Assembly (NCBI GenBank): GCA_951406725.2
Contig: OX597827.1
Location: 58,032,001 to 58,096,000 of the forward strand
DNA length: 64,000 nt
Origin: Octopus vulgaris
Taxonomy: Eukaryota
Direction: 5' to 3'
Shown: piece by piece, positions 8,048 to 37,771 of the stretch
How positions within the stretch are numbered: the stretch's first letter is position 1
Layout: the number at the start of each line of letters is the position of its first letter
Position numbers and translations under genes: made by a program
Notes under the pieces: model-generated
What the model was told of the DNA's origin: nothing
The model's input: the letters and a program-made list of their open reading frames with translations, nothing else
The model's database searches: none

Positions 8048-8089
<42 letters not shown>

Positions 8090-9068: not shown

Positions 9069-9099
9069 TATATACACACACACACACACACATATATAC

Positions 9100-9152
<53 letters not shown>

Positions 9153-9392: not shown

Positions 9393-9395
<3 letters not shown>

Positions 9396-11309: not shown

Positions 11310-11350
<41 letters not shown>

Positions 11351-11485
11351 TATACATACACACATATACACTTTCAGTTTCTGTCTACAAAATACACTGA
11401 CAAGATTTCAAGTCAGCCCCGGTCTAAAGTAGAAAATACTTGCTCATGGAGCCACACAGTGGAACTGAACCCAGAACCACATCTG
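11115..11485 (-). mobile_element. SINE family A
   Basis: Reverse-oriented body and head with an internal (TA)n. Confidence 0.8.
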
Positions 11486-13382: not shown

Positions 13383-13485
13383 GATCTTGGCCACCAGCTT
13401 GGCCTTGTTGTTGCAGGCAGAGCAGTTGGTATCTCTCAACCACACCTCACACATTATAATCTATGGGATTACAATCAGAGAAATT
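13383..13485 (-). mobile_element. maT transposase fragment
   Basis: Reverse complement resembles 14770-14860 (GATTGTAATCCCATAGATTA...GTGTGGTTGAGAGATACCAACTGCTCTGCCTGCAAC). Confidence 0.7.
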
Positions 13486-14224
13486 GCAAACTCCAAGAAG
13501 TCAATGATGGTAGCCCATTACTGATTTTATGTTAAAGTAGGAACTCTGATAATTTTATTTGATGGAATGTTAGAGCAATGACACGATACTTTTTACATGT
13601 TATGGAGGACATTTTAGGCACAAATAATAAAACAAAAATTTCACGTCATTTAAATGGGCAAAAAAAAAAAAAGTTTTGCTAGAATTTTTAATCAAAATCT
13701 TTTATGTCAAAATAATATAACAATAATTAATATAGACTGTACATATTAGAAATTTTTTTAGACAATTCTATCTGCTAGCTTTGTAATAATTACATTTATT
13801 TTGAGGGTTGCCATTCTTAAATAAGAGACTGAGTTACATTGCATAAACAAAATGTACTTGTTTAGTACATTCAAAACAGACAATTTAATTATAGGTACCA
13901 TACATCAGACAAAGGCAAACTAGGAAATAATGACACCAAAACACATGATATATGGATCAAAACAAATTTTAAAAAGAAAAGAAAAAAACAAAGTGAATTT
14001 CATGTTATGACATGAAATATAATGGCACAGATTTCATACCAAATTACCAAAAGTTTGCTAAGGAATGTTTATAATATTAAGGCTAGTGCAGATCAGCCAA
14101 CAACTAGACAGAACATAATATATTAAGGAATGCTCCAAGTATCTACTTCAGAGAAATATCCTAAATATTTCCCTGAAACTCAAAATATAGAATAAGTTAT
14201 ACAAAAATAGGTCAATTACATATA

Positions 14225-15074
14225 TGGCGTTTGGGTTAAATTTGATGGTTTTTTTATATCTCCTTTTTTTTTTTAGAAACAGCTTGATGTATTGGAGAGC
14301 ATAAAGACAAAAGCTGTAGTTGTTGAGAAAAAGTTAGCTGACATGGTGGACTCGAAGCCATCTGAATATTGGAAAAGTGTTACCTGTGTCATGATTTGCA
14401 CCAGGTGTCAAAATGCTGACATCATGACAGCTGATTAATGCTCTGGGAATAGTGTCAAAGTAAGACATGACATGGATAGCTGCAATAAAGACTGTAAAGC
14501 TGTGGCCAGCCGGAATGAACACGGTAGGCATTCTAATTGTTTTGCACACTGGAATTCAATCCCACATGCTTGAACAGGGCCTTAGGCATAAATCAGATGG
14601 CTATGTAAAGCTGCTAGAGTGATCAAACCCTGGTTGAAGAAAGAGTTACTGATGGAGGGCCATATGTGTGGCAGCAGGATTTAACTCCTGGTCATACCGC
14701 CAGAAAGAGTCAGAAGTGGTTGCTGGAGAATTTCTATGATTCCACCAGCCCTAATTCCTGGTCTCCAAGTTACCCTGATTGTAATTCCATAGATTACTAT
14801 GTGTGGAGTGTGGTTGAGAAAGACACCAATTGTTCTGCCTGCAACACCGAGACCAAGCTCAAGGAGAGGTTTGAAGATCTGCCCAAGTACACTGTGAGCA
14901 ATATATATACACAGGTTTCAGAGCCTTCTTGAGGCTATGGTGGAAGTTGAGTAAACTGTTATCGCTCAACCGTAATCTAGTTGATAGTTTTTGGCTTTTT
15001 AACATACTTTTACTTTTGGATGGAATACTGTGCTTTCTTTTCCTTTTAAGCTATCAAATTTAGTCTGGACACTA
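14225..15074 (+). mobile_element. maT-family (DD37D) Tc1/mariner relic, internally deleted
   Basis: ORF 14666-14932 (WQQD..PGHTARKSQKWL...WSPSYPDCNSIDYYVWS) has 37 residues between the last two catalytic Asp. Degenerate TIRs share TAAATTTGAT and are flanked by TA. Confidence 0.85.
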
Positions 15075-15450
15075 TACACACACATATGTAAATATATAAA
15101 ACTACAATAACATTAAGCAGTGATTTCATAGTTCATAGACTGTAGTCATGCTGGAGCACCAGCTTGAGAGTTATTAGTCTTTTATCTTGTACTTATTCTT
15201 AGTCTTGTAAGAAACAAAAGGCAAGTTGATTTTAGTGTATGTAAAGAGAGATGATGCAACTGGAACAAAATACAAGATATTTTTGTCCATCACAGTGAAA
15301 CGAATTTATTCACCTCACATTGATATGCACACATACAGATACGATGAAGTTCACTTCTTCTAAATTTCATTCACAAGATATTAGTCAACCAAGATGGTAT
15401 GCAACAGGATCAAACCCACAACCATGTGATTGCAAATTGACGTTCTTTAA

Positions 15451-15642
15451 CCCTTTCATTACCAAACTGGCTCTGAGTACAAATGTCTTGTTTTCATAAG
15501 TTTTGAATTAAAATCTTAGTCACAATTTATGTTCCTAACACTAGCTGAGTGATAACTAAGTTATTTTACGAAATTCTTTGTTATATTTAAATTAATTGAA
15601 AGAAACACAGAGCATCTCAAAATAAATACGGTAACAAAGGGG
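15451..15642. mobile_element. piggyBac-like MITE
   Basis: TTAA|CCCTTTCATTACC ... GGTAACAAAGGGG|TCAA. Confidence 0.7.
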
Positions 15643-17934
15643 TCAATGACAAAGTTATACCGGTTATTCTTTTTTCCATTTCAGGCTTTGGACTGCAGCC
15701 ATGTTGGGGAATCAACTTGAAATGTTTTGTCTCGTACTTATTTTATTGACCTTGTAAGAAATGAAGAGTTAAGATATCTGATATAAAAGGAAACATGTAT
15801 AGCACAAGGCAATTTTGTTTGGTACACCAATTTGGTTCCTTCTGCACTGGGCTTCTCCAGTAGTTGCCTTTGAACATTCCCCATACCATGTTTTGGTAAA
15901 ACAAAGACTTTGGCGGAAGTCACTACATGTAGCAGGGGTTGTTGAAACCAGAATCATATCACTGCAAAATGAACTACTTAAACCAAATAGTCATCCTTGT
16001 GTCCCAATTAAATATGCTTTTTTTTATGTAATAAAACACATTAGTGTTAAGAAACACAGCTATATCATCATCCCTTAAACTAGCTAGAAATATTTAATGT
16101 ATTTGATAGATCAATGAGATTAAATCATTGATGTTGTAGAATGAAAGAAACCCTACCCATCTTAAATAAATTTATGCACGTATTTGCTCACTGAGATTTT
16201 TTTTTCTTTCCATTTTTTCCTTTTGTGTACAATCAATATCTTTCTTTGATAATGAGAACAATGTTCAGAAAGACAGCAGATGCTAATGCTATTACTTTCT
16301 CGGACTGTGCTAATTTCAACTACTATTTGTTTTTCAGTTTATCCGCCTTTGAATTCTGAATCAGTTATTGTATGAAAATATGAGTAATTTCTCTCAAAAT
16401 TTTCACATTACATAATAATAATCATATGCTAATTATACAGATATTATCAGTTAAAAAATGATGAATCAAGCACTGATAAATGAAACTGATTAAAATATAG
16501 GGGAAGATTCTGAGTATAGGCCATAATTTTCCAGTCTAAGATGATTAAGATAAGATGCGGAAAATTTTTAAAAGGGTACACAATTAGACCTCAGTTACCC
16601 AAACAAGTTAGGTAGGGTGTATTTTGTACAGATATTTGGTCTGGTTGTAAACCAAGGACACCACACTGAACATAATTTTCATAAGCATGCATATATACAG
16701 AGTTTGTTGTTTTTTGTACGAGTTTTAAATGCTATACTCCTCCTATACAATCATGTATGTCTTTTCAACGTGATCCAGATGTAAACTTTCATTTTCCTTT
16801 TTACTTGGATTGTTAACGGTGTTCATTTTCTCTTCACAGACATAGTAACAGCAACTTGATTACTTGTAATAGATACATATTCAGAACAAGTTGTAGAGTC
16901 AAAAGGAAACATCACTGATTTAGCCATGCTTTTAAATTTTTCAGCATGTCAATCATTCTTGTGCTAAAATTAATTTCGCACAGTATAAAGTGGCCAACAA
17001 GCTAGTAGGCCTTTGGACACGTTACTTTTAATAACTAAATGAAAGATGCGATTGTCACATCAGTGTCTGTAACAGACCTCTTTGATGTAACATTTTTACA
17101 TGTTCTTCAGTAATTCAAAGTCACTTTTAATTATTGCAGATAAAAGATAAAATGATAGCACCAGCATTAACTGTGAGTTCAGGTTACAAACAATATTGCT
17201 AATTAAATATTCACAGAAACTTGAGATTTTGTTCAGATAGCAGCTCGGAACAAAATCAAGAAAGAATGACAACATCACTGATTTGGGTAGCTGATAATTG
17301 AAGACATCTATTTGGATTAATAGCTGTTTAGATAACCAAGATCTGACTGTTGTTAAAATAGAGAAAATGAAACTAAAATTTAAACTAAGCTGACAAAAGT
17401 TGCTACAAAACCAAAGCAGTATTAGTTTCATTTATTAGAAACATATGAATAAATTTAATATACGTTGTCAAGGCTAAATATATATATAAAAAAAACAGCT
17501 ATACTAAAAGGAAAAAAAATTCTTTGTATAAATTAGATGTGTGTGAACCTAATAAATGAAATAATTTCATTCTAAAGCTGTGACAGTAAGCAGTTCGTTT
17601 CAACAGCCTCAACTCTTGAGACAACAAATACACTGTTTTATCTAAAAACATCCAGAAAACCTAGTTATCAAAAAGAATGACACAAAGCTAGATAAAGACA
17701 CTAAATGTTGATAGTTTCCAGAGAATTGATAAGGAAACTACAAGATACTGTAATTAATTCTTTTATTGTAGGCTAACAACTTTACATTGGTATATTTACT
17801 TAGTAATTTAGTCAGTCAGTGAGCACTTCTACTGTGAAGTTCCTAGAGTTGTACATTATTATACTCAACCAAAGTCAAATAAAAGAAAAATTAAGTTACA
17901 AACTAACAGTTATTTACTTTTACAGTATATCTTA

Positions 17935-18230
17935 GCTTTTACTTGTTTCAGTCATATGACTATGACCATGCTGTGGTACTGCCAGGAAGGATTTAGTTGA
18001 AGGATTTTGCCCCCAGTACATTGCAGGCATGTAAACAAAACAACACTAGTTGTCAAACACTAAGGAAACAAAAGCACAGACATATACAATGTAGCTTCCA
18101 CAGTTTCCATCTGTCAAATTCACTCACAAAGCATTGATCAGCCCAGAGTTATAAGAGAAGACACTTGCCCAAGGTGCTGAGCAGTGGGACTGAACCTGAA
18201 ACCACATAGTTGCAAAACAAGGTTTTCCTA
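17935..18230 (-). mobile_element. SINE family A
   Basis: TTTTACTTGTTTCAGTCAT...ACACTTGCCCAAGGTGC...GGGACTGAACC. Confidence 0.85.
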
Positions 18231-19074
18231 AGCATTAAATATTCATATATCCAAAGGTCTTACATATATTAATAAAGGAAAACTGAAAGAAGAGAATGGC
18301 AGTATTACAAATCACACAGCTGATGAAAGCATCAAATTTACTAGTAAAACTGTGTGAATGATGACAAATTGACAGTTTCAAAGTGCACAGAGTGATTTTT
18401 GTACCAATGTCAATTTTTATGACACCTATATATGTGCAGAACAAAATGTCTAAGTTCAAATCAAGATATGAACAAAATAATTCCCTTAAAATCTAGTAAA
18501 CACTTCCTTTGCAAAGATACAAAAGTTGAACACAGTTATCTCTCGATAAATTTGTGTTCAAACTTCTGTAAAATATGTTTAATTCCACACAAAATAGACA
18601 GTACTGTAAATAGTCAAACAGATCAACAAAACTGATGAACAACCCACATAAGTAACAATGTTACATGCATTAATAGGCTTAAAGAAAGCAGACAGACATC
18701 TAAGAAGAGTTTCTAGAAACAAAAGATAATGCCATTTTCTTTAATAGAATAAGCTGAAGATGAAGAAATGGATATTAGCAGTTGTGTACTGATAACATCA
18801 GTAAAAGTAAACAAAAAAGATTGTTATGCAGTAGGCTGCTAAAATTTAAGAATCTAGTTACAGACTAATGTATTAATGGGAAAATACTATTATACTGAAC
18901 ACTAAAAGACAAAATGCTAAGATAACCACATGAATTCTGAATTTAGAATTTCTTTTTGGCTTCCAAGACAATTTGCTAAATGAATACACAAAAAGCTTAG
19001 TCAGATTTTGAAATCGCTTTGGTTCAGACGAAAGGGCTGAGCCTATAGTCTTAGCAGACCTTCTGATACTGAGG

Positions 19075-19305
19075 TAAGATTAATGAAGTTAAGGTTCCTC
19101 TTGAAGATGTATGAACAAAAGGACTAAAAAACGAGCAGGAGAGAATTCTAAAGAGCAGATGTTCGGAGTGGAGGGAGAGGAAAGTCTAGGTGTAGTGGTT
19201 AGTGTAGAGTATGGAGAAGAGGCTTACATGAGTGATGAGAGAAGCATAGATGGATGAGCGAAGAGGGCTTAAATGGAGATGGTATGAAACCAGCTAGCTC
19301 TGATA
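19075..19305 (-). mobile_element. CR1/L2-group LINE ORF2 3'-end remnant
   Basis: Minus strand gives SELAGFIPSP...RTSAL*NSL...FKRNLN across frameshifts, matching the typical RT..LWN.LP...FK C-terminal signature. Confidence 0.6.
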
Positions 19306-19834
19306 AATACAAATGAATTGCAAAGTACAGCCATTTTGCAAGAGCTTAAAGTATGCCACAATAAAAGAATGTCCACTCAGTTCATATTAAAAACCTATGC
19401 CTACTCAAATACTTCTGTTATCAAGATGATGACTTAAAAAACAAATGCAGAATAATAGCAAGGAATTTTGACAACTGAAATCAGTTCCAACAGATAACAA
19501 TGGATTGTCAACAAAGGAAATACACCAAGTTGAGCTTCATCCAGCAGTAACAGCAGCAGTCCAGGCGATAGGAAAAAAAGCAAGAGTATAGATTTATTGA
19601 ATTTATCATTTGCTTCACAACTGACAAGCAAGATGAAATTGAATGTTTGTGAGTTAAGATCAAAGAATGCTTACACAAGAACAAAATGAGCAAATACTGA
19701 ATGGTGGTAGTCAAGGTGAATACACAAAGCAAAGAAAATGGTGAAAAAGAGAAAGATCAACGGCAAGCGATTTGAGTATATACTATCACACAATATGAGC
19801 ATATACTATCATCAGTCATCATATACAAAGACTT

Positions 19835-20055
19835 GGTTTCAAATTTTGGTACAAGGCCAGCAAGTTTGGGGGTGGGGTGGGGGTACGTAGATTACAGGAG
19901 GGATCCTATTGTTCAACTGGTACTTATTTTATTGACCCTGAAAGGATGTAAGGCAAAGTCACCCTTGGTGGATTTTGAACCGAGAAGGTACAGATGGATG
20001 AAAGGCTGCAAAACATTTTGCCTGGCATGCCAACAATACTGCCAGCTAGCTACCT
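19835..20055 (-). mobile_element. SINE family B
   Basis: Reverse complement of the element at 40548-40770. Confidence 0.8.
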
Positions 20056-20199
20056 CAGTCATCAAATACAAAATATTGAAATTTATTCAAAATAAATAAA
20101 TTTCCAACTTTGAAAAAGAAGGTAGTAAAATTTCTATCAGAACTGGGCATAAATTTATATCCATCTTCACTGACCACTATTCAAGAGAAGATCATGGGA

Positions 20200-20640
20200 A
20201 AAGTCCTCAGACACCGCTTCCATAAGGTCCTATTACACTTTCTGGCTAGATTCCCAAGTATGACCAATTGAGACTATGGATATCATCAAACCATCTTATT
20301 CTACTTCCTAGGTCTCCTGTCAATTGGCTTGGCTTGAAGAATCTGTCGTGCAATTCTTTGCAGCAACATTCTAATCACATGCCCATAGTACAAGAGCTGT
20401 AACTTGTCAATGCAGAGAAGTGGCAGCTCAACTTGGAGAGACATCCTGATCTCTGAGCTACATACCCTGTCAAGTAATGTCACTCCAGAGATCCTTTAGA
20501 GGAACCCCAGTTTTTGCTGCTTGTATTCGTGAACATCTTTCAGTCATTACCTAAAATTAATGACCAATGAATAAGGATAGGCACAAAAACTTAACTGAAA
20601 ACAGTGAGTTTGGCATTTTTGCCAACACTCCTCTTTTGAT
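20200..20640 (-). mobile_element. RTE LINE ORF fragment
   Basis: LDRVCSSEIRMSLQVE...QLLYYGHVIRM...ARQILQAKPIDRRPR, typical of the RTE C-terminal region. Confidence 0.85.
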
Positions 20641-20794
20641 ATTGTTAGACAACATATAATATTGGATTAATTATGTAGAAAATAATATTTTATTTCATAT
20701 ATTTCATTCACTTTATAGGCTAACCGTAACTATACACCAAGCTCTATGCAATCAAATTTTAAGTGAATGTCATTACTTAATTAAAAGAAGGAAA

Positions 20795-21128
20795 AGACCC
20801 CCTTTGGTCATGAACGACCATGAGATTGCACCTAGAAAGTTACCCTCTGAGGTACAAGACTGGGCAAGGTTATTTATGGAAGACCAGCAGTTGCCCAAGT
20901 ATACTAGCCTCTCCTTTTCACACAACTGATGTTACCCAAGGGAAAAAGGAAAAGCTGGTACAGCTAGATACCAGTGATGTCGCAACTCATTTCTACAGCT
21001 GAGTGAACAGGAGCAATGTGAAATATAGTGTCTTGCTGAAGAACACAACACACAATCCGATCCAGGAATCAAACAACTATTCATGATTGTGAGCCCAATG
21101 CTATAACCACCGAGTCATGAGCCTTCAC
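20795..21128 (-). mobile_element. tRNA-derived SINE family C
   Basis: Reverse complement shows a TGACTCGGTGGTTATAGCA A-box head, TTGATTCCTGG B box, and GCAAGACACT...TTCACTCAGCTGTAGAAATGAGT central domain. Confidence 0.75.
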
Positions 21129-21189
21129 CATTGTTTAATTTGTCCTTATTTAATTTCATCTAAATGCCACTGGCTTCATGTACACATAT

Positions 21190-21738
21190 TTGTGGATAGT
21201 TGATGTGGTGCTGATGAAAGAGCAATAACTCTTGAAATATGCATATACACCTATTACCTTTTTTTTCCCCCTATCTTCACTCACACTGTATTCGTTTATG
21301 AAATGTTGTAACTTGCAATGCTGGCTCTGAATTCTATAGGAAACCTACAGAGATAAACTTAAAAGTGAATACTCCACACTACTAACACAAGGTAAGACAA
21401 TATTGACTTGTAAACTTTTAAATATACTTGGTAGTATATTATGTTTGCACAACGAAATACTGTGCCTTTGCCAGCAATTAATATGTATGTACCAGTTGCC
21501 AAGAATGTGTTTAATATGTAAATTAGTCTATCCAATTGTGTTACATCACTAAACTTAGTGGGTATTTAAGCAATGTGTTTGTGGATAGTTGACAGGTTGG
21601 ATGTGGTACTGATGAAAGAGCAGTAACTTTTGAAATATGTATATAAGCCTATTGTTTATTTTTTCTATCTTTGATTGCATTATTTATATAAATGTATTCA
21701 CTTATGAAATATAATTTGTAGTGTTGGCTCTAATTCTA
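21190..21738 (+). mobile_element. Penelope-like pseudo-LTR remnant (two direct repeats, each with a hammerhead motif)
   Basis: Direct repeats at about 21190-21337 and 21579-21738, each with CTGATGA-AAGAG-loop-CTYTT-GAAA-palindrome-TA. Confidence 0.7.
21207..21251 (+). ncRNA. Minimal type I hammerhead ribozyme motif
   Basis: GGTG CTGATGA AAGAG CAATAA CTCTT GAAA TATGCATA TA CACC. Stem I is GGTG/CACC, stem II is AAGAG/CTCTT, and stem III is palindromic. Confidence 0.75.
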
Positions 21739-22100
21739 AAAAACTGATAAAGTCTGATAACACTGAAACCTGTCAATAGTCCCCTTACTAAAGAAAAACC
21801 ATCAAAGTTTATGATTTAATTTAGTAAAGTCTATTCTTGATTTCTCAGAATTATCTCTCCTTTTCTTCGAGAGTTACTATTACCTACCATCAGGATTTTG
21901 TTTTCTTTCTCCAACTTCAAGAGAAATTGAAAAACAACATTCAGTACATTATCTTTATCATATTTTAAATGTGTCTCTAGCCTATTTGGGGTATGTCTCT
22001 TAAATAATTACACTGTGTTACAAAAGCATTATTATTATTATTATGTATTTATTTATTTACTATTTTTGGTCAGTAAGTGTTATGACCTTATTTGCTTCTG

Positions 22101-22460
22101 TCTAGAAATCAAAAGAAATGACAAAACTATTCCCTTCAAACTTTGCTTTTGTGACCAGGACATCAATGTTTTGAAATTGACCTATTTTCCATAAGATTTC
22201 TGACAGATTTAGCGCTAAATTGCTGAAGCAGAAATATTGTTATAGCAAATATTCTTTTCAATACCATGGGTTTGCTTGCCAGTTGCTTGACCTTAATCAC
22301 TCGAGCATGTCCGTTGGTGGCTGACAATATGTGCGCCTCTGATCATGAGCAGCAGTAGTTGGGGAGCATCATAGCAATTGAGAGAGATTCTCTGGGGTTT
22401 GAATAAATGTAACAAAGGCAAAATTTGAAGGAAATATTAGCCATTTTCCATACTTTTTAG
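22101..22460. mobile_element. Non-autonomous DNA element with ~50-bp imperfect inverted ends
   Basis: CCTTCAAACTTTGCTTTTGTGAC versus GTAACAAAGGCAAAATTTGAAGG. Confidence 0.6.
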
Positions 22461-23506
22461 GGGCAAGCAAATATGAAATAACAGTTGCTACCCAAGGACA
22501 AAAATCGTGTGACAGTGTCATTTAAAAAAAAATATTTATGAAACCTCTCTTTGCTATAATAGAATATTATAAGGTTATAAAAGTAAACATTAACCTATAA
22601 TTATATTAAACTAAACCAAATGTAAAAACCAGTAACTCATAAATTTTATAGAAGAATACCTAGCCACAATAGATTAAAACAGTAGACATAAAATAAGACT
22701 GTAATAAACAACCATTTGACCCTGACCTTCAAGAGTGCACACTAAGTGGTACATATGGGTACTTGAATCTGTTTATAGGGGTACTGGTTTAGGAGAGTTT
22801 CAGAAGGCTCACTGGGCACTGGTTTTCTGCGTTTATAAAATTTTGAACTTAAAATGATCAACAAATAATATTTACGACACAACAACTTAAGTTGTTCAAA
22901 AGGTTATTATTATATTTAATACCTTCGTTATTTTAATAAGGATTATTTTCAAACTTCAATATAAATTTTCAAAACTTAAAGCAAACACATTTAGTTTCTT
23001 CTCATCTTGAAATGCGTCTTCTAAATAAGGCTACGGGGTTGTCTCATCTCTACAATATAATTGCGGAATAGTGTGAATTGTTATGTCATGATATAACGTC
23101 ATATAATGAGAAAAAAAGCAGTTGTTTATCGCAGTAACACAGTAACATGATACTAAGATATGTGAAACAGACAGATAAATGGACGAATTTGATGGAAATA
23201 ATAAATAAACTAGTAAATTTTTACCCGAATTTATCACAAACGAACACAAAAATTTAATAAATACTCGATCAATAGCATCTTCCGAAGGTCCTTAATTTTC
23301 AGTAAACAAAGCTATCTTGATACCCTACGTATTTTTTGTTTATTTAAGAAATCGATCATTTGAGTATATACTTTTCAAATTAATTCCAAAGGGTTCGTTA
23401 TAGTAAAAGTCGAAATAAAAGAATATGTAAATATATTTATATACATTAATTTTTTTTAATGTGAACAGTTAGGAATTTAAACAAGCGATCAACAACTAAA
23501 TCGAGT

Positions 23507-23568
<62 letters not shown>

Positions 23569-24287
23569 ATATGCGTATATAATAATGTACAGGCCATTCT
23601 TATAGATAACAATGATTAACAATGGATATTTTGTGACTACTTAATCTCGTGCTCAAACGAATAAAATTATATATTACTACGTAGTAATTATCTTAATATA
23701 AATATAACAAGAACAATTCAAAACAGCTGAAATAATAATCCACAGTGATTCTATTACGGAAAATGTAGAAGATTTAAAATTCATTTTAAAGATCGAGGAG
23801 GGGAAAAAAACGTAACGGTTTCGATATTTCCCACTCTAAATCGTTTAAACTTTAAAGCAACCCCAAATAAAACGGTTATAAAATGAAACTTTGTAAATTA
23901 TCTACGTTAGAATACATTATTTACAATCGATCAGTATTGACAAATTGATATAACGTAATGTTAATTGTTGAGTTGCATCATTATTTTAAATATATCTATA
24001 TTTGAATTCAAATTTACTAAAGCCATAAATCTGATGACAGGAAAGCCAAGAGAAAAAAAAACCTGTGAATTGTTGTCATACCTATCACCCCGTGGGCGAT
24101 CTAACGATCCTATTTGATCACAATCTGACAAGTTATTATACCTCATTAAGTTAAAAAAACGACTACATCTGAACAGATAGATGAATAATATTCATAATTA
24201 AGAGAAATCAATTATATATTGTAGACATTATATATTGAAAACATTAAGTTTCGAACACGAAGGAGAGAGGGGGAAATGACTGGAATA

Positions 24288-24295
24288 ACTTCCGG
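24288..24295 (-). promoter_or_regulatory. ETS/GABP-type site in early REEP intron 1
   Basis: ACTTCCGG (CCGGAAGT on the minus strand) within the CpG-retaining zone. This is a motif match only. Confidence 0.35.
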
Positions 24296-24608
24296 TTGTT
24301 CTCCATTTCATGGCCAAATATGAAGTTTTACGTAGGCGAGGGAAAAAAATCTGTTAAAACTCATTTATAGTCGTGAAAATAGCTTAAATTTTATATTCTC
24401 TAATAAGAAAAAACTTCCTGAAAATATTTCGCTGACCAGTTAGTTGGAAAAAGTGTTTCCCGACGGCCGTTAATTAGATGGTAATTGCTTGATCCTTAAG
24501 TCTATAAGAACAACACTTCTCAAAAAATATATATATATTAAAAAAAGGGATTTGGGTTAGACAGCGTTATACAATAAAGAATAGATAAATAAGGCGTTAT
24601 TTACTTAC

Positions 24609-24640
24609 ATAACTATACGAGATATTAAACTGGATACCAT
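24609..24640 (-). CDS. REEP: First coding exon of a REEP1-4 family (receptor expression-enhancing, ER-shaping) gene
   Basis: Minus strand reads ATG GTA TCC AGT TTA ATA TCT CGT ATA GTT AT|GTAAGT = MVSSLISRIV plus 2 nt. This matches the REEP1-4 N-terminus (MVSWIISRLVV / MVSWMISRAVV). It has a consensus donor, and the 32-nt phase-2 exon matches vertebrate REEP exon 1 as I recall it. It lies next to KDM3, as in vertebrates. Exon 2 was not found in the window. Confidence 0.88.
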
Positions 24641-25706
24641 ATCCACACACTACACGCAACTAAAGTAATTTTACGCCACGATCAACGGATCTGATTTAGT
24701 CTTTTCCTTTGAAAGTAAGGAGCTTCACAAACAATCTTTATGCATTACATGGCGGCTAATCGCTGACGTCATTATCATATGACAAAACGCCGCAGATTCA
24801 CTTGTCAAAAAAAAAACTCAACTAAGTATTTAGTTTCGCATTGTAAACAAATCGCTTATTAAATACATGTTAACGCAATATTATTTGAAATGAATTATAC
24901 AATGAAATAGTTTTCATATAGAAGCTGAAAGAGGCTTTGTAAAAATGTCGTCTGCTCGTTTAATTTTTTTTTTTTTTCCTTTCGACTTTCAATTCCCGAT
25001 TTGAATGCATTTCGTGATTCTTTATTAATCAAATAAGTTGCAGATGCATAAATTCATAAAAACGTTTAAATTTCTGGAATTTAACTAGTAAAGTTTCTAA
25101 TATTCAAAACCAGATTAAAATAAAATGCCATTTTTTCTTTCTTTTTCCTTTTTATTTTAAATGTTGCACGTAGAACTATTTGCAGAAGTGTATGCGGAAT
25201 GATTTGAAGTGGTGATAAAGCTTGTTACACTTCTGCTAACATGCTGATAACATTGAAACCATATCACATTCACACTAACGCAAACCGCATGTGTTTTCTT
25301 TTATTTCTCTGGAAATTTTCTTATTTACTCAGTGCTATTTATTAATTTATTTCTGTGATATTTAAGAAATCGACTAATCAACTGTGAAATGATTATATTT
25401 GATATTTGCTTTTTTTTTTTCAAACTGATATAGAATAATTTTCTCGTTTGTATTTGTATAAAATTTGCTGATAGAATGCAAAAGAATTTATAACAATAGC
25501 AAAAAAGCAATGTTATTGTAGCTTTAATCTATTTGGACCGTCGCGGAGACCATTTCTAACTTGACCTCGTGACCGCCCCACTTTCAGTATATTCCTACAC
25601 CCCATAACATTACGCGAAAGACATTCCATGAGATTTAATGTAATGTGTGTGTTTTGCTGAGCTGATGGCGAAAAAAAAACCGCACCATGGATATATAACG
25701 TAAGAA
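24641..25706. promoter_or_regulatory. Bidirectional promoter and 5' UTRs between REEP and KDM3
   Basis: 1066 bp between divergent ATGs, rich in CpG and free of recognisable SINEs. Motifs: YY1-like ATGGCGGC (24749-24756), CRE palindrome TGACGTCA (24764-24771), GC box CCGCCC (25573-25578), Inr-like TCAGT (25584-25588). Confidence 0.8.
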
Positions 25707-25862
25707 ATGGCGTATAAATACCGGGAAGAAATTGTCGGGAAAAGATTTTTGTATGTTTCTGGTCCTGGAAAATTAAAACTTGCGAAAATTTCTGACTGGG
25801 AATGGCGGTCTGGTGTGGTTCGAGCTGTTTCTGGCAAGGATACGACTAACGTAGAACTCTCT
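25707..25862 (+). CDS. JMJD1C: First coding exon of a KDM3/JMJD1C-family JmjC histone H3K9 demethylase
   Basis: Translates to MAYKYREEIVGKRFLYVSGPGKLKLAKISDWEWRSGVVRAVSGKDTTNVELS, followed by a GTAAGT donor at 25863 (phase 0). It resembles the human JMJD1C N-terminus (MAVETRAELVGKRFLCV...WRAGVIRAVSHRDSRNPDLA). The expected next exon (xxVEFD..W...W) was not seen. Confidence 0.92.
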
Positions 25863-26254
25863 GTAAGTGATGAAAAAAAATGTTATTGTTTTATTTTAGA
25901 AAGTCCATAAGGAATGCATGCTTTCGTTGTTGTATTAAAAAAAATATATATATATATACATATATATATATATTGTTCTGATTTTTATTTTATATGATAT
26001 TAGTTTCTCTAAAGTTTTCTGCTAATTCTCTGTGGATTTTTTTTTTTTTCGTTTTTTTTAGAAGATTAACTGTAAATGTTAGCAATAATCGAGTTTTGCA
26101 AAAAATAAAGAAAGAATTAAGTAACAAAACTCCCCGCACATTCACACACATACATATATACATACACACGCTCTGCATCTCTATTATATGTGCATGCATA
26201 TGCACATATATCCACATATGCTATGCATTCATGTAAATAAGAAAAGCTTCATGT

Positions 26255-26560
26255 TATGTATGTATATGTATATATGTGTATGCTAATGTATGTATATATA
26301 TGTGTGTGTGTATGAATGGATGTATATATATATATATATATACATGTGTATATGTTTGTGTATAAACGAGTATATGTGTGTATGAATGGATGTGTGTGTG
26401 TATATATGTGTATGTATTAATGTATATATATATATGTACATATGTGTATATATATCCACATGTGTGTATGCATGTATAGCTACATGTGTACATATGTATT
26501 TATATGTCTACTTGTCAATGTATATAAATATACATGCATATATATTTATATAATACACAC
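26255..26560. repeat. Degenerate (TA)/(TG) microsatellite
   Basis: Seen directly. Confidence 0.9.
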
Positions 26561-28714
26561 ACAAGAAGCACAACTATCACAGATTTTAAAAATGAATTAA
26601 ATGAAGAAAAATTACAAATTCAAAGACCTTTTATTAAGGGGTGGGTTAATTATTACAAGTTGAATGTCAAAGAGTTAAACTGGCCGTTTTTTTTTTCTAA
26701 ATATAAAATTTACATTGTCTCTTTTTGCTCTCCTTTGCTCTATCTCTGTCTCTCTTTCATCTGAACATATTGAAAAATATTATCTAACTTGCTTAATTTT
26801 TTTTTAAATATTTCATTTACTTTTTACTATTTACTACAATTTATTCAACTATTTTATTCGCGAGAAGCTTTATAAAAGAAATACAAAAAAATCGTTGTCA
26901 AGTCTGCGCTTTGTTTTATTTAAATTAATGTCTTTCTTTTGTAATTTATTTTGTAATTCAGTGTAACTAAATGTCTAAAAGCTGGTCTGGTCTGGTCTGG
27001 TCATCGGTCAGTCAGTCGGTCAATCTCTAGCAGTTCTTTATTATTATTACTATTATTATTATTATCATTATTATTGTAGTTGTTGTTTCCTTTTTTTCTC
27101 CCCCCCCCCCTTTTGGTTTGGTTTAGAAACGAGCGTCTGCATTTGACAGACGGAATGAAGAAACATTTTGAATTTTTCCAAAACTGGAAAACGATGTTGG
27201 TTGAGAGATTTCAGTGTTTAAGTGGTGCGCGCGAGCGTATAATAATGTGTGTGTGTGTGTATATATTTGTGTATGCATGTATGTATATTTGTATGTGTAT
27301 GTATATTTGTATATGTGTGTGTATATTTGTATATGTGTGTGTATATTTGTATATGTGTGTGAACCATGGCTTTTTATTTGAATCTGGTGTCGAGTAAGCT
27401 TAATGTGTTAATGTAAAAATTAGTATGTAACACACGTATGGATGCATGAGTTTGTCTTTCTTTCTTTCTCTCTCTCTCGGTCTCTCTTCCCCCCCAACTT
27501 AGTGATCCATTTATTTATACAACCAACCTTTCTCTGTCTATTGTATTTCCATTTAAGTACTAGCTTCTCTCCCCCCCACCTCCATTACACTCCCGATCGA
27601 ACAGAAAACCCTATCAGCAAAAAGGCGTTCCAGTCGTGACCATACTGTCTTTTTTTTGTCTTTGTTTTTTATTTCATGTAAATAATCTAGGACCAACCAC
27701 ATTGATCAATGTGGTGTTTCTTCGTTTATTCAAGGACAGTGGGTGAGCTGATTTGTAGGAACAATTTGGCTGCTATTTCTTGCTCGTCGATCGCCCCGCA
27801 TAGAGAGAAGAAGAAGCTCCCTTTCCTCAGTTCGTATTTTGCCATTCGATTCAACCATGTGTTGAGGGACCTATTTAAGTGGGCGACGTTGTACCGAACG
27901 GTTTTAAGATACACCACCGCCACTTTCATCATCACTACTACTTAAGCTAGCTGTCTGTCACTTAACACTTTATTTTTCACACTGTTGCCACCATCCGTCC
28001 ATCCATCCATCCATTCTTCCTTTATTTTATTTTTCGTTTATAATTTTCTTTTCCTCTTTATTCTCCAGTCTTTTTTCTACCACAACTTCCCCTTCTGTGC
28101 TTCTTCACCATCAACACCACCACGACCACCACCACCTAGCTCATTTCAATGCAACTTGCTTTATCACCATCACCTTTGTGTATTTTTCCACACACTTCTC
28201 TACTCTACTCTATCTTCTACGTATTCTTTTCCCCCCTCCGTCCCATCACCGTGCTTGTTCTGTCTGTTACCGCGCTTGTCCCCTTCATCTCCATCTTTAC
28301 CGTCGCCACTTGCCAAAATACCATTCTCTCCTTCTCTCTTTCTCTCTCTCTCCTCAACACTTATTTTTTTTGCAATATCATTTGTCGCTTTATTCCTATG
28401 CTAGTTTCAATTGATTTCTCGCTCTTTTTTCCTTTTTTTCCCCCCCATCAACCACCACCACCACCACACTACCATTACTTCAATCTATCATTTGACGTTC
28501 TTTCCTTTCCTTGCCGTCACCTGATTCTTCTTTTTTTCCCTTCTCTCTCCCCAGTTTTCCAGTTTCAATTGATTCCTCCTCTACCAACACACTACAACAC
28601 ACTTCTCGCGCTTTCCTTGTCCATTACACCCCTCTTTTACCAATCTTTCCATTCACCATCACCGACATCACTACCAACTAGGCTCCTCTACAAGACTAAC
28701 CAACTCTAAGTGAG

Positions 28715-28890
28715 CTCTCGACTCGCTAGAAATAACAGCCAAATCTTCCTCCAACCGCGTCTTACCGCCATAAATAAAACGACAGAGACAATGTAGTCAT
28801 AGTTATGAAAATAAGACTGAATGGTCACGATTAGAACGCCTTCTGTAATAAGTCTGATCGATCAGGGTTGATTTGAAGTTAAACAACTGC
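28715..28890 (+). mobile_element. SINE-like 3' fragment, family D
   Basis: GCTAGAAATAACAGCCAAAT...GATCAGGGTTGA...AAACAAC. Related pieces lie at about 2495-2640, 5850-5960, 37350-37405, and reversed at about 27760. Confidence 0.55.
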
Positions 28891-29289
28891 AAACTGCAGA
28901 CGATTTTTCCTCTTCCAACCAGATTGCTTTATTCTCCTGAAACTTCACTCCTGACTCCCTGCTTGTTCCCTACTCTCCGCTTCATTCATAAGAAACTCTT
29001 TCACAACCGATTAAGTTTACTTATTGGTCGTTGGCGGCGGCGAAAGGTGTTGCAGATGTGCTAAAATATCTGCTGTAGACATTTCTTATTATAGACCCCT
29101 CTCTCTCTCTTATAATAAAAGAATTACATCCAAATTGTCTGTCCAGAAGCCCCATGGCTTCTAATACTGTCTCCATGTCTGATATTTCTAAAAGAAGCAA
29201 TTATTGCTAAAGCCGTTTTATTCAACAGAAAACTCTTTGTATCCCTTCATTTCCTTTTTTTCCCATTGATAAATATCAACACCCATTGC

Positions 29290-29332
<43 letters not shown>

Positions 29333-32111
29333 TGATTGATTCCAGTTATATGAGCTGTGCCATGCTGGGCACCGCTTATATATATATATACATATAGATG
29401 AGATTTAAAAGAAAATAAATTGTATAAAATTTAACGGGTTTTTTTTTTCCAAATTGGAAATATTCGTGTTCACGACTTGTTTCGTGACTTCGAGAAAGGC
29501 ATGAATGTCACAAATTCCCATGTGTTTCTCTCAATAAATCTGAAGCTTTATGTCTATATAAGGTATTGATATTTTTACTAAATTCCTTTTTATAATTTTC
29601 TCTTTCTCTCTCTTTCCGGACCATCACACCTAAATAAACTGGTATATTTTATCATCTTTTGTTTGACTGAACCAAAGCTTGATTCTTGAGTAAATTTAAT
29701 AATAATAATAATTATTATTATTATTATTTGGTAATTTATTATTGGGGCTGATTTCATCGATCCATACCTCTCCTCAACCTTCGCCAAATTTCTGAATTTG
29801 TCTGCTAAGAGATTCAGTGTTGTATATATTATGAAAGCACTGAAATATAATTTCTTGGTTAAGTAATATGCGCTTGTCCATTCTGCCTTTTGACCATATT
29901 GCCTGGTCTCTCTCTTATCAGTGAAAATATTTTTCATTGTCTCCCATGTTGCTTCATGAAGAGAATAAATCAGTAATCATTTTGATTACAAATAATTTAA
30001 CTCGAAATTCTTAACCCAGTTGTCTGCTTTTGGTGGTGGTGGTAATGGGGGTATTTTGTTTTGTTTTTTTTTCTTTTTCGGGTCAAACGTTTCTCTAGAC
30101 TTTCTAAATTCTCTTTGTTATTGCATGATCTTATTTAATTACATATATAACAATTATATATAAACTCATGTTTTTATATGATAATAATAATAATAATAAT
30201 AATGTGCAGTTCATAGAATTTATAAAAATATGAACATTTTTTTTTTGTTTTTAGTTTCTTTCTCTTTCCCCTAAAACTTAATATTGATTTTTAACAAAGG
30301 TGTTTTTGTTTTTTGTTATAAAATATAAATTAAGTTTTTGCCTTAATTTCTCCTCACATTTTTTACTTTGCGAGCTTAAAGTTTCATTTATAAGGTATAT
30401 TAGGTCAATCTCAATTCCTTTTGGAATCGTTTAAAAGAGAATGTTCTTATCTAACGGTTTTTTTTTTTAACTTTCTGACAGCATAAACCTCTTTATCTTC
30501 TTCTAAGTGATTGAATGAGAACATTTTTTTTTTTCTTCTTTTTGTAAAAGGAAATATATTTTATCAGTATCAAGAGAATGATAGTATTGCTTCGTTTTTC
30601 CATTCTTTTTTTATTTACTTTTTCTAATTTCCTTTATCAGCAAAGGAAATCTATTTTAGAAATCTCGAGTTTAGTTGAAATAATTTATTCTGACAAATCT
30701 GTTGTTATCCTAATTATATTTCTCCAGTTATGAAATTATAACACACCCCTCCTCTTTCTTTTCCAACCTAATTTACTCAACAGAAGCAAATAGTTTTTGT
30801 TACTATTGTTAGAAATACAATTTTGTTTTTTAATATACATATTAGTCTAATATCGGTTGGGCTTCTTTTATCTTAGAGATATTTTTATTTCACTTTATCT
30901 GTTCCTATACATGCATACACACATGCACATATGCGTATATATTCATAGATTCATACGTACGTACACACATAGACATGCATACATACACAAATATATATTT
31001 ATATATATGTATGTATGTATAAAGAAGTGCTAACGTGCTTGCTTAATGGATAATCTTTTCTTGCGTAAGATTCGAATAAAGTAATTTCATGGGCTTGGGG
31101 AATCTGGTTAAACGAAGCGGTAGCTGATAGTTTAAGAATCAACTTTTCTTTTTTTTTTGCTTCTTCCTTTTTCCTTTATCTCGCTTCCAATTAGGAAGAA
31201 GCGAACGAAAATGTGTGCACACTTGTGTGTGCATAATGTTTTATGGAACAGTTGGGTCGCCAATCAGAATCTTTTCCTATCGACACACCTACTGAACTGG
31301 GTTGCTGCTGCACTGGCTGATTGCTTGTAACCCATTTATTTACACGCTTGTCTATATCTTATTTCTTTCATGAAAACCCCCACCCACCCCGCTTCTCCGC
31401 TCTACCCCGTCGTGTTCCTATACGCTAAACAATGTCCAGTGGATTTTGTAGTCCAGAACATAGGCCGAGTATATTAAAAACGAAGTGCCGTTGTATCAAT
31501 GTGTGAATGTGTGTGAGAGAGAGAGGTTAGAAAATGAAATAATAATGGAAAAGTTCTTACTTCATTAAAAATGAAGTGCTGTAGGTTTGTGCGAATAAGT
31601 ATTATATCTCAGAAAGTTAATTGTTACTTATAACAGTTAAAAAGTATTTAAGGTTCTTCGGACGTTTTGCCGAGTGAGAGTTTTTTTGGGGGGTTTTTTG
31701 CTGATGCTGGTGTTTAAAACCTATTTCACTATTCGTTTATTTTTGTATATTGATAACCACTGTAGCCATAGTTTTCATGATGCTTATGTAGCTGAGACAA
31801 CTGCATTTTAGGTATTAAATTTATATAACCTTTGTTTCCATTCCTGAGTTTAAACTCTTGTGTTGCTAGAATTTTTTTCTCCGCCTCTAAATCTCTTGTC
31901 CTTCACTTCCCCCTTAAATTTCTTTACCCCTCCCATAGTTTTATGAATTTAGAGCACATTTATTTAATATTGTTGCATATTATATTCTTCTCAAACCTCT
32001 ATAACAGATTTTTCCAGAAACTGGTTATACTAGCAGTTAAATTATCAAAATCGCAGAAATATTCAGTAACTTGATTTTTCATTAAAATATTGAAAATTAC
32101 GTGTGTGTGTG

Positions 32112-32143
<32 letters not shown>

Positions 32144-34871
32144 TGATGTGTTATGAGTTTATGGAAAGAAATCCCATAAAACTCAACAATTTTGTTAAAA
32201 ATGGAGAAAAGATGTGTTAAAATATATAAGAATTTTATACATACATATATATCTTTATCTATCTATATATATACACCTAGTAGGAAAGATTTATGTAAAC
32301 TGGTATTTTTTTTCCTTGGTCGTGCAACATTGTGTACAGAATTTAAAATTTCAGTTTTGATATTAAGAAATTGATACGATCCTTTACATTTCCTCTTTCA
32401 AAAACAAAACTTGTTTTATGATATAATCCCGTTTTATTTTTCAATTCGATCTCCCTTTTTTTTTTTTAAATTAAAATATATATATAAAAAAAAAGAAAAG
32501 AAAAGAGACAGTGAGGGAAAAAATATGCATTAAATCTAAACCTGAAACGATACTGGTATATATGAGTAGTTCAGTTGAACTGTGAACATTCTAAAATTTC
32601 ATATGTTAAGACACGTTTAGATTTAGAAAACCTAATTGATTCATGCTTTGAACTAAATCATCCAAAGGTGAAAAAAATCGATACCTTTATGCATTTGTTC
32701 CTCTGCTGTATCATGAAATTCTGGCTTGATGTACAAGATGTTCTAAAATTAATGCTATATTTTCTATATAGAATTACTGTACATTTAGAATATAAATTTT
32801 TTTGTTTTATAAACCATTTTTTTTTTTTCTGACAAATTTATTTTTACTTCACACCTCTTCAGCTTCAGAAAAAAAAAGTTTTATTCACTAAAACACTATC
32901 ACAAATATTGTTGTTTATATTATTAGTGGCTGCTATTGAAAATGTATTTGTGAAGAGTTTCTGCATAATGTATGCCTGTTTGTGTTTCATATACTAATTT
33001 ATTGTTAAATTATTAATTTTATACACATTGAGAGAAGGGATGAAGTAACAGGATTATGTATGAAAGTTATTATCTTTTTAAATATACATTTCTTTTTGTC
33101 CTTGGATAAAAACTAAAGATAAATTTTATCAGAACTGTATTACTACTATCAATAATTGTTTCATTGTGTATCAAAATCAAACTATCACCGTTGCTAAAAT
33201 TGTTGATCTAGCATGTAGGTTAACTTTCTATTGCCATATAAAATTTTACATTAAGTCAGCCTTGTCTTCCTTCTTCTGGGAAGAAAAATTGCTGAAGTAC
33301 TTACTGTCTATAACATCCCTACCAGGTGATACCAGGCTGACTTGTACCTTTTTTTAAAAACATTTGACTGACACTGTAGTAGCTTCCTGGCAGTATTAGA
33401 TCTTTATTTAGTACACTAACTATATTGATAAAAGAGATCAAACCAAGAGGAATCGCGTACATATTAGTTGTTAAAATCTGTGTTTCATTCATTCAGCTTT
33501 ATTTAAATTTTGATTGCAACAACAAAATAAAATTTATAAAAAAAAGAAACAATTTTGCGAAAGACTATCCGATATTTTAACCAACATAGATAAAATGCAA
33601 AAGTTGGTCAACTAGCCTTTTGTTGTCTCTAAAACACGATAACTGTTACTGATAGTTTAGCCTAAGAGATCAAACATACTACAATAGACTGCATAAATTA
33701 TCTCTGAAATTGAAGTTGATGGAAGGGGTGGGGGGCGCGCGGAATGTTCTAGCAGCAACAATGTGAATTCTTTAGCTTAGATAATTTGATCAATATTTAA
33801 AGAAATTGCTCACCAAGTTTTCTTTTTCGCTCTCTTTTTTTCCGTATTTTTTTTTTTTCGAGCTTTTATAGCAAATGTTGGAAGTATGTTTTGTGTTTAT
33901 TAACAATATATTCAGAAGAGAATATCGTATAGAAATTTAACTAACATTTGATATAACTAATCCGAAGAGCTTGACAAATCTCTCACGTGTTAAGTAAGAG
34001 ATTGTATTAAAAGTTTAACTTTTACTATAACCTTAATGCGATATAATTGAAAATAGTAATAATAATGATTGCATATTAGATTATTTTACTTGAGGAATCA
34101 TTTGCAATAAATTTATTCAAATCTTTACATAATTGGGTAATTTTTAAAACATTTTTATTTGTAGAATGGATTTAGCTAAGTGGTTTGTTAGCTGTTTAAA
34201 TGTGAATTTAAAAAATGCCATATTCGCAAAAAAAAAAAGGAATTTAAAAAAGAAACAAATATAATTGACAGACTTCTAAATCTAATTGCGATCGTTAGCA
34301 GATAAATTGCAACTTACAAAAAAAAGAAATTGATTTACATTAGTAATAGTAATAATAGTTTGGCACGCGTGCGCGTGCACGCACGCGCGTGCACACAAAC
34401 TCTGAAAGCACGCATTGTGACACGCGTACAAGCTTATACAGAAATATACGCGGGTACGAGCAAAAAAAGACATAAAGCAATTTATTTCAAAATAGAAAAA
34501 TCTTAATATATTCATGAAAGATTGTATTTGCCAATCTTGTCATTCTGTACTACTGCGCGCTACTAAACTCTAAAGTCTTAAAACTGCTTGCTGCTATTAT
34601 TATTATTATTGCTACTACTATTCGCCAGCGTTACTACAGTTGCTATAATGCCAACGTCATTGAAACTACTACGGAATACCATTATTACCATTCCTCCTTT
34701 ATTATAACTGACAGAAGCTACTACAAAACTATACTATAAATCCCACCTCCTCGAAAAAAACAGAAGGAAAAAAAATTATGGTTTTCTTTCAGCAGATTTT
34801 TAAAAATTTATTTTATATAATTTATGTATTGAAATCAGAAAACTAAAAACTCAGTAATATTGTTTTTGTAT

Positions 34872-34916
<45 letters not shown>

Positions 34917-37771
34917 CACACACACACATATACAGAGAGAGAGAGATTAGTTGTGAATTTTGAACCCCACTTGTGTGTGCTTGTGTCTGTAACAGATTTG
35001 CCGAGTTGCTACCAAAAATGGCATAAAAATAAGTCGATTATTATTATTTTGTCGTCAGATATAAAATTCACAACAAATAAGACAAAATCATAATTAACAT
35101 CTTACGATTAATTTTAACAAGTGGTATTGATAATGATGACGTTACACTTCAAATGACATATCGAATAGTTTATGCTAGCTATTTTGGTACATACACACCA
35201 CATCAAACTGTCTCAAGCTTATTCAACTGGTTGAGGTCATTGACTTCTACGAGTTCTCGATATTTTTCTGCGATAAGAATATGATTTCGCTTGCTAGTTA
35301 GTTGTGGTAGTAGTAGTAGTAATAGTCATTTGCATATATCTGTACAATAAAAATTAAGAATTTTAGATAAAGATAACATTTTTTTTTTAAATGATAATTT
35401 TGATTGTGGCAATTATGAATTAAATTTAAATATATGCATTTTTAAGTTGGCTGGCTTCATTTGTATTTTCTAAAGGGATTATATAATTTTCATTCTAACA
35501 ATTTTTATTATCGATTTTTATTCAGTATTCTAATAAATTTACTGAAATTATAAAATATAAAATGTTATGTAATAAGCTACTAATCTGATTTTTTTTTTTT
35601 TTTTACTTTTAAACATGAATAATTTGTACCTATACGTCTCGTGTGTGTGTGTGTGTGTATTTTGATACCTATGATGGGCATATTGGGGAGTACCATATAT
35701 TTTCAAAGAAACTATTATTAATTGGAGGGTTTAATTATGATGAAATATGTTTATATTTGTAATTTGATAGTTAACGAAAATTTTAAATATTATTCTTTAG
35801 TCTTTTTATTACAAAAGCAAAATATTAAATTCCACTTCAGAAAATGTAATTGTAATAATATTATATATTATAAATTTCTCAGAAATTAAAATGACGTTTC
35901 CCTGAAATTAATATTCTTACATATGTTTATACTTCTTTGTTCCTTGGCAGTTGACAGAAATTTTCATTTTTAATTTTCTAAAATCATTGTAGCTAGTTTT
36001 TTTCTTTTTTTTTTTTCTGCATTTCTCAAGTCAGAATTTATTCTTTTCATTCAGTAATTATTCATAACTATTTAGCTACTGCAGTTTTAATCTTTACCCT
36101 TTTGTTTCAACATTGTTAGCAGCAGACACTTTCATTTAAGAAGCTAAGAATTTGGAAAAGGAAGCTTATTTAATTATATTTTTGAAAATTTTTGCAAACT
36201 GTTAATTCTAATTCAAATGTCACTTTATCAAGCTTCTATTTAATCATAATAGAATGTTTTATTTGAAGATGTCAAATTTTATTTTGTTTGCTTGTTTTTT
36301 TAGGCAATTCAATATGCATTTCAATATTATTTCTTTGATCTATAAGCTATTCGTAGTCGTCCAGCTGGTTTCCTATGATGCCATTAAGTTTAAGTTAAAT
36401 ATTCAAACTTGCTATATAATGTCATCTATTATGAGTCTAGAATTCCTAAAGTCTGGTTTTAATTCCCTTGTCAGTTAGATTCAGACTTTTTGGTATAGTG
36501 TTTAGAGTGACTATTAGCATCTAATTTTTCTCTCCAAAAACATTTGCCTTGTTTTCTATATAAAGGAAATATCATTATGTCAAGAATTCCTTTCTTTTTC
36601 ATAATTTAAAAAAATTTTTATTCTAAAGTAGTTTAATTTTTGAATAAACATTTACTTAATTTTATCAAAACAAACCCAGAATTAGCAGCTACATCTGATG
36701 ATTGAAAGAGAAAGATACCTTGGAAAATGTGAACTATAATATTCAAAAGATTGTGATAGATATGGCTGTTTACTTTGTGACAACATGGTTTTGGCATCTC
36801 TCCTGTGTTGGCACCTTGGCCAAATAATTTCTACTGGAGCTTTGGGACGTGGAATGGGGTAAACAGAACCTGTATAGCCTCTGGTCACATGTGTGTATGT
36901 ATGTATGTATATATGATGTTATTGACTTAAACTTTTAGTACAGGCATTGCTGACAGTCATTGGTTTTAATATCTAGGATATTATAATTTGTCAGTGATGG
37001 TCATACTAGCCTACAAGTTGACAGCCATCATGTATGTCAGTCTGTCTGTATGTATCCTCACATAATAAGCTACTACACAGCATTGTGTGTGTATGCATGA
37101 ATATTGATGTTCTCCAAGTCCATCTCACCATAATCGTGATGTTATGTTTACATTCACTGTCAACATTCTGTAGCTCTGTGCTTTCAAAAACTAGTGGAAT
37201 AAAAAATAATACCTTACTTGAAAAACAAGGGTTGACTACAAGAAGGATATCCAACCTTAAAATGCTACCTCAGATTAGTTTCTGTCCAACCCATAATAGC
37301 ATGGAAAAATTGGACATAAAATGGATGAAAGAATGAACAAGATGATCATAGCCCAAATGCTTTTGATCATGGGCTGCTCAATCAGTTGACCTGAAGCTCA
37401 ACAACAAAAAGAAATAAAAAAAACTGCCTGTTGTAAAACTGCCATATTTGATCTTTTAGATATGAGCATTAAAATTATGGGTTAATCTGTTCTTAACTGG
37501 TAATACAAACAAAGAAAACTCTAGCTTTTATTTGATAATCTGCCAGTTTCTGTTTCATATCATTGTTCTTTTGTGATCTATTTTGTTTTTGTTGGTGTAT
37601 CTCTAACCCCCAAACTGCTCTCTCCGAAAAGAATTTATACTTACTGTTATCACTATCTTTTGTTTGAACACAAAGATAGGTTTCTGAGAGATTAGCTATA
37701 GTATCATCATTGCCCTCATCACACTTCTGTTTTTTCATGCTAGCATGGATTGGATAAAATGTCACAGTCTA

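Follow-up and report, generated by a model that had tools for sequence, protein, structure and literature searches.

The 64,000-nt stretch of Octopus vulgaris DNA analysed here (the window) is repeat-rich, has a GC content of 32%, and carries two first coding exons placed head to head: on the plus strand the opening exon of a KDM3/JMJD1C-family gene, assigned by homology, and on the minus strand a micro-exon that very likely begins a gene of the REEP1-4 type (Table 1).

Table 1. Features of the divergent locus and its surroundings, in window coordinates
Feature	Position	Strand	Basis
Putative first intron of the left-hand gene, >24.6 kb, running out of the window	1..24608	-	No later exon found; AT skew +0.060
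CpG-retaining domain, ~14 kb, lopsided, extending some 10 kb into the first KDM3 intron	22001..36000	.	CpG o/e
Putative 5' splice donor GTAAGT of the micro-exon	24603..24608	-	Sequence; intron positions 1-6 conserved
Micro-exon, 32 nt, ten codons + 2 nt, phase-2 intron	24609..24640	-	Sequence and homologous exons
Spacer between the start codons, 1066 nt; would hold the divergent promoter and the 5' UTRs of both genes	24641..25706	.	Skew, CpG
YY1-like motif CATGGCGG	24748..24755	+	Motif, picked after viewing; weak
CRE-like palindrome TGACGTCA, 124 nt upstream of the micro-exon ATG	24764..24771	.	Motif scan
GC box in a GC/CpG-richer patch near the KDM3 start	25573..25578	+	Sequence
KDM3/JMJD1C first coding exon, 52 codons, start of DUF7030	25707..25862	+	Pfam, relatives
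KDM3 first intron, >38 kb	25863..64000	+	tblastn; AT skew -0.078
Transposase fragment	61733-62164	-	Pfam Transposase_1, E 2.1e-08

By homology, the right-hand gene is a member of the KDM3/JMJD1C family. Its first exon matches the Pfam entry DUF7030 (E 1.1e-18, 67.5 bits against a cut-off of 27), ends at a phase-0 GTAAGT donor (25863-25868) and is identical to the first 52 residues of the protein P0001, which then runs into PWWP_KDM3B; relatives known at full length, which are named KDM3A/B or JMJD1C, combine DUF7030 with PWWP, Tudor and JmjC domains. P0001 has no relative in the PDB and only leads below 0.9, of the Tudor/Spin type, in the ESM Atlas, and Rfam gave no match. Two short, weak KDM3 matches in viral contigs were not used. 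Searching the 38 kb to the right of exon 1 by tblastn with ten KDM3 proteins, some of them full length, returned no further KDM3 exon. On the other side, the 24.6 kb left of the micro-exon yielded no downstream REEP motif, and the 186 of 289 minus-strand open frames searched there (frames of at least 34 aa) gave no Pfam match above the curated cut-off, the single match below it being ascribed to chance. Because no later exon of either gene lies in the window, both first introns would extend past its ends.

The left-hand exon reads MVSSLISRIV, that is, ATG and nine further codons, followed by AT, with an in-frame stop four codons 5' of the ATG. By itself such a pattern is weak evidence, as ATG, 29 nt and GTRAG occur in this order five times in the 64-kb window. 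We therefore compared the exon with metagenome contigs around KDM3 exon 1, of which 19 were returned and 18 counted; the remaining one, L019, was a false match (72% GC, an 11-residue match) and was dropped before counting. In seven of the 18 (L003, L005, L006, L008, L010, L013 and L017) a 32-nt exon ending in AT|GTRAGT lies upstream of KDM3 on the opposite strand, its peptide scoring 29-36 against that of the window, and none of 200 shuffled locus sets gave a micro-exon match scoring at least 25. Recurrence at the same length, phase, strand and side thus places the exon above chance.

The pattern of conservation is that of protein-coding sequence. Across the window and six loci (L006, which is closely related to L005, was excluded from these figures), identity at codon positions 1, 2 and 3 is 0.47, 0.91 and 0.24, that of the flanks of the exon is 0.29-0.30 and, on the donor side, that of intron positions 1-6 is 0.95 and of positions 7-30 is 0.30. 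The codon-position pattern, the conserved donor and the unconserved flanks together point to a coding exon under purifying selection, and the micro-exon is almost certainly real and conserved. The initial annotation, which had proposed this exon with its donor sequence, its distance from the KDM3 start and its membership of a conserved head-to-head pair, is confirmed on each of these points, the pair recurring in mollusc-like and insect-like loci. A first exon of 32 nt escapes annotation based on open reading frames, which is one way in which surveys of gene pairs may overlook such links.

Start-to-start spacing is 342 nt in L003, L005 and L006, 470 nt in L017, 600 nt in L013, 663 nt in L010 and 4835 nt in L008, so that, with the window included, seven of eight loci fall within 342-1066 nt and six within 342-663 nt. 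All eight loci having both exons are divergent. After close relatives were merged, 12 lineage groups remained, half of them positive for the micro-exon. The other six lack it in the DNA covered, three of them spanning just 86-631 nt upstream of KDM3; the remainder, L001/L002 (1.8-1.9 kb), L009/L015 (up to 1.7 kb) and L018 (4.0 kb), cover more upstream DNA than most positive spacings would need, which suggests that the pair is broken there or wider apart. L001 (1366-1405, about 1840) and L002 (1267-1306, about 1730), both mollusc-like, have a 41-nt non-coding block in common and, some 86 nt ahead of the KDM3 ATG, a GTGAGTA that resembles a donor. Across the loci, a search for a conserved intron in the 5' UTR of KDM3 found none, a clear acceptor being present in L017 only. 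In L004 (87-1103), which covers just 86 nt upstream, KDM3 exon 1 continues into the next domains without the first intron, and this may mean that the intron was lost, that the copy is a retrocopy or that the contig derives from a transcript.

KDM3 exon 1 also indicates where the loci belong. That of L008 is identical to the exon in ant and bee, those of L005, L003 and L017 are 77-87% identical to cockroach, and that of L013 is 79% identical to a gastropod; for the window exon, identity is 71-73% with gastropods and 73% with a cockroach, and L010 reaches at most 62% identity to any named protein. In a tree of 52 columns the window exon groups loosely with molluscs, and L010 joins the long branch L018, a placement that is not firm. 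L010 carries the full pair and a CRE-like site (1340-2190) and could be a deep lineage dating the pair further back. Judged from these first exons, the loci show that the pair already existed in the ancestor that molluscs share with insects.

The partner of KDM3 is very likely of the REEP1-4 type, an assignment built on the general features of the family and on two published points. The peptide, the 32-nt length and the phase all appear to fit the N-terminus and exon 1 of REEP1-4, and the exon opens directly with a hydrophobic segment (ten residues, mean hydropathy 1.4-2.1). As for the published points, exon 1 of human REEP1 has fewer than 60 coding nt, c.60 lying in exon 2 and intron 2 beginning after c.105 (PMC2492855), and the available text of PMC3411107 places human REEP1-4 in paralogons with HR, KDM3A, JMJD1C and KDM3B. 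Beyond that bound on exon 1, the papers searched, including the main text of PMC5279100, gave no human REEP exon boundary or N-terminus. The available text of Yalcin et al. 2017 (PMC5576921) treats Drosophila ReepA (CG42678) as the single orthologue of REEP1-4, the expected kind of single-copy invertebrate gene that such a micro-exon would begin; Kdm3 is absent from that text.

Ten residues are too few for a family search: a simulated ten-residue profile yielded 3-8 bits, a score that HMMER's filters discard, and the ESM Atlas returned no usable match for the exon. The TB2/DP1/HVA22 domain (PF03134) was not matched in the 186 minus-strand frames left of the micro-exon, as would be expected if intron 1 is long, and no later REEP exon or motif was found in the 0.5-5.1 kb beyond the micro-exon in the seven positive loci. 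The 14-3-3-binding lynchpin motif, which according to the accessible part of PMC3411107 distinguishes REEP1-4 from REEP5-6, would lie in a later exon beyond the window. A search with an exon-2 motif pattern returned one viral and 35 prokaryotic loci, all of them chance matches once translated.

Between the two start codons, strand composition and CpG content both change. Cumulative A-T skew, with tandem repeats masked, peaks at 24945, between both starts, and the skew is positive in 18 of 24 bins to the left and negative in 33 of 38 to the right (Table 1), its sign also flipping in four of five other loci. Long-term divergent transcription is expected to leave such a flip; a permutation of the bins (0 in 20000) is given no weight, because the bins are not independent. 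In 250-nt bins, the CpG observed/expected ratio of the spacer runs from 0.84 to 1.98, whereas the window as a whole has 0.36, and the seven 2-kb bins of the surrounding CpG-retaining domain have ratios of 0.62-1.24, with 0.10-0.59 in the other 25. This domain would fit germ-line hypomethylation and may be a long unmethylated regulatory region.

One element shared between spacers is a CRE-like octamer, one of two such sites in the 64-kb window. In six of the eight loci it precedes the start codon of the micro-exon by 79-139 nt, and it is absent from L013 and L017; the shuffle P is 0.003-0.0095 per locus, with 1-2 such sites per whole source, for a pattern that was made wider by one letter after the loci had been viewed. 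In the insect-like L003, L005, L006 and L008 it is accompanied by GTCACGTG about 20 nt beyond it, and in the 342-nt spacers it is central. In each of these four insect-like loci, a word similar to the YY1-like CATGGCGG but in opposite orientation is found 89-97 nt away from the micro-exon's start codon.

Distance to the KDM3 start, by comparison, ranges from 230 to 4697 nt (0.9 kb in the window, 4.7 kb in L008), and the CRE-like site, as far as these sequences tell, tracks the micro-exon and not KDM3. L008 (5166-10000), of ant/bee type, has a spacer grown to 4835 nt with the motif cluster kept beside the micro-exon, and within that spacer an AT-rich tract of 2.5 kb separates two patches rich in GC. 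The varying distance and the two patches argue against one compact shared core promoter. In the window, the patch with the GC box is a possible separate core promoter of KDM3.

For vertebrates, a REEP1-4/EGR/KDM3-family paralogon has been published by Tinti et al. 2012 (PMC3411107). In its accessible text, that system resembles ours in that the same two families adjoin, which places their linkage in a pre-vertebrate ancestor, with amphioxus orthologues in a legend; it differs in concerning human chromosomes, with nothing on orientation, promoter sharing or protostomes, whereas the pair described here is directly head to head at 0.3-4.8 kb in mollusc-like and insect-like animals. The available part of PMC3216519 places HR outside the clade formed by the other three KDM3 members and amphioxus, which calls for caution over the four human pairs listed in the initial annotation. 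The initial annotation held that the linkage predates the protostome-deuterostome split, and this is the simplest reading of the mollusc-like and insect-like loci together with the vertebrate paralogon, so that a bilaterian age is likely; the loci themselves are insect-like, mollusc-like and, in one case (L010), unplaced, and none is a sure deuterostome.

Among the literature searched, mostly open-access texts available in part, the linkage is treated solely in PMC3411107. Neither the pair in invertebrates nor its promoter was found in the main texts of PMC3514665, PMC9023564, PMC13508932, PMC13652810 and PMC3216519 (the supplementary list of PMC3514665 may name it), the pair is absent from the supplements of PMC9023564, PMC2871058 and PMC13508932, and the accessible portions of PMC3476715, PMC13458517, PMC4214198 and PMC3851471 contain nothing on its orientation. 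What we add is the head-to-head layout in invertebrates and the conserved CRE-like site. A neighbourhood described for vertebrates is thereby carried over to molluscs and insects as a tight head-to-head pair, which supplies the arrangement ancestral to all four human REEP/KDM3 pairs.

The pair is an ordinary example of hundreds of ancient head-to-head pairs and no new kind of system. In the part of Irimia et al. 2012 (PMC3514665) available to us, nearly 600 ancient pairs are described, mostly 5'-5' (54.8% in human, 68.6% in Lottia), and as a class they are enriched for this orientation, short spacers and co-expression. Like those pairs, of which HSPE1-HSPD1 is one, REEP and KDM3 are unrelated genes, divergent across phyla, with what may be a short spacer and with a candidate conserved non-coding element; unlike pairs of the HSPE1-HSPD1 type, the partners have no evident common pathway. 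Unrelated neighbours across distant phyla are found here in the window and six of 12 lineage groups, with vertebrates added from the accessible text of PMC3411107. Irimia et al. count spacers of <1 kb between transcript starts, and our 342-4835 nt are ATG-to-ATG distances only; their intergenic element corresponds here to the CRE-like site in six of eight loci, tied to one partner and found with a pattern widened after viewing.

Survival of the pair in a rearranged cephalopod genome, which the initial annotation had put forward, was overstated, such survival not being rare. Schmidbaur et al. 2022 (PMC9023564, in its available parts) report 275 ancient blocks kept in squid and co-expressed above simulated blocks, a comparable case of ancient local linkage outlasting genome rearrangement, although their method requires at least three genes and neither gene name appears in the text or supplement files. 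Given these blocks and the roughly 600 ancient pairs, survival in a rearranged mollusc genome is expected of some pairs.

As a whole, we find the locus best explained as an ancestral divergent REEP1-4/KDM3 pair held by overlapping promoter space, a reading to which we give a probability of about 60%. A REEP1-4-type gene would be transcribed leftwards and KDM3/JMJD1C rightwards from one CpG-retaining region of ~1 kb, both genes starting in a short stretch and then entering very long first introns. With long first introns on either side, a harmless break would be possible only inside the small spacer; if the spacer carries promoter sequence for both genes, a break there would damage that promoter space. 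The CRE-like site, ~80-140 nt upstream of the REEP start, would be the oldest visible element, most likely driving REEP, and may help to keep the region open for KDM3. A pair held in this way would be expected to show modest co-expression, and a shared pathway is not needed. What keeps the pair together, like the low methylation of the spacer and the start of transcription within it, is something we infer, and shared promoter space is, by a small balance of the evidence, probably the main reason for retention. The further proposal of the initial annotation, a shared promoter coupling the two functions, fits the data only loosely: the CRE-like site follows the micro-exon and not KDM3, and the length of the spacer ranges from 342 to 4835 nt. 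Spacers of 342 nt with a conserved CRE-like site nevertheless provide a small, testable case for why unrelated genes stay adjacent.

The pair may instead have been retained passively, by two independent promoters that present a breakable target of only 0.3-5 kb between long genes, with the CRE-like site being REEP's alone. We consider this possible, with the odds well against it. That the site goes with the micro-exon rather than with KDM3 speaks for it, as do the 14-fold variation of the spacer, the separate GC-rich patches in L008 and in the window, and the three lineage groups without a micro-exon within 1.7-4.0 kb. Two of the four human REEP/KDM3 pairs are presumably head to head no longer, and in Drosophila the two genes are not known to be linked; both points would count in the same direction. 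Against passive retention, the spacer has stayed at 1066 nt although the neighbouring introns exceed 24 and 38 kb, 342 nt in L003, L005 and L006 leave space for little beyond one promoter, and, in the accessible text of PMC3514665, co-expression of conserved 5'-5' pairs taken together exceeds that of matched controls.

A further reading takes the spacer as a bidirectional promoter centred on the CRE-like site, over 550 million years in age and recognisable to this day in molluscs and insects, through which one bZIP signal, of the cAMP or ER-load type, would induce both REEP and KDM3. We regard this as unlikely. If it were true, a bZIP-driven bidirectional promoter would form a hard-wired link from ER remodelling to H3K9 chromatin, variants at human JMJD1C-REEP3 would affect both genes and, should L010 prove non-bilaterian, the promoter unit would be older still.

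Also improbable is a selected regulatory unit, in which a bZIP factor at the CRE-like site (of the CREB/ATF, CrebA or XBP1 class, going by the sites that these bind) co-induces ER shaping and an H3K9-type chromatin regulator. Occurrence of the site in six of eight loci, with GTCACGTG in four of them, and its central position within the 342-nt spacers would suit such a unit; its absence from L013 and L017 would not, nor would the 0.9 kb and 4.7 kb that part it from the start of KDM3 in the window and in L008. CRE sites are, moreover, common in housekeeping promoters. The H3K9 activity of JMJD1C is itself disputed, even for the mouse protein, in the available text of PMC5029890.

Finally, it is very improbable that the micro-exon is the conserved first exon of a non-REEP gene, for although it offers just ten residues, no family match and no downstream exon in the window or the loci, its peptide, length and phase appear to agree with REEP1-4 exon 1, and the published human exon bound and the paralogon independently suggest REEP.

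Other features of the window lie apart from the pair. Within KDM3 intron 1, positions 28001-29000 show strong pyrimidine skew (GC skew -0.57, AT skew -0.25) with CAC/CAT runs, and the open frames in this segment have no Pfam match. At 57526-57935, a perfect inverted repeat of 156 nt, its arms 98 nt apart, is overlapped by a perfect 85-nt direct duplication (57681-57765 and 57782-57866); the structure is due either to a recent fold-back duplication or to misassembly. Dispersed short repeat families (D9-D12, D15 and D17), SINE-like, occur beside AT/AC microsatellites, with SINE-like examples at 4145-4294, 12161-12310, 18072-18221, 42445-42594 and 45717-45866.
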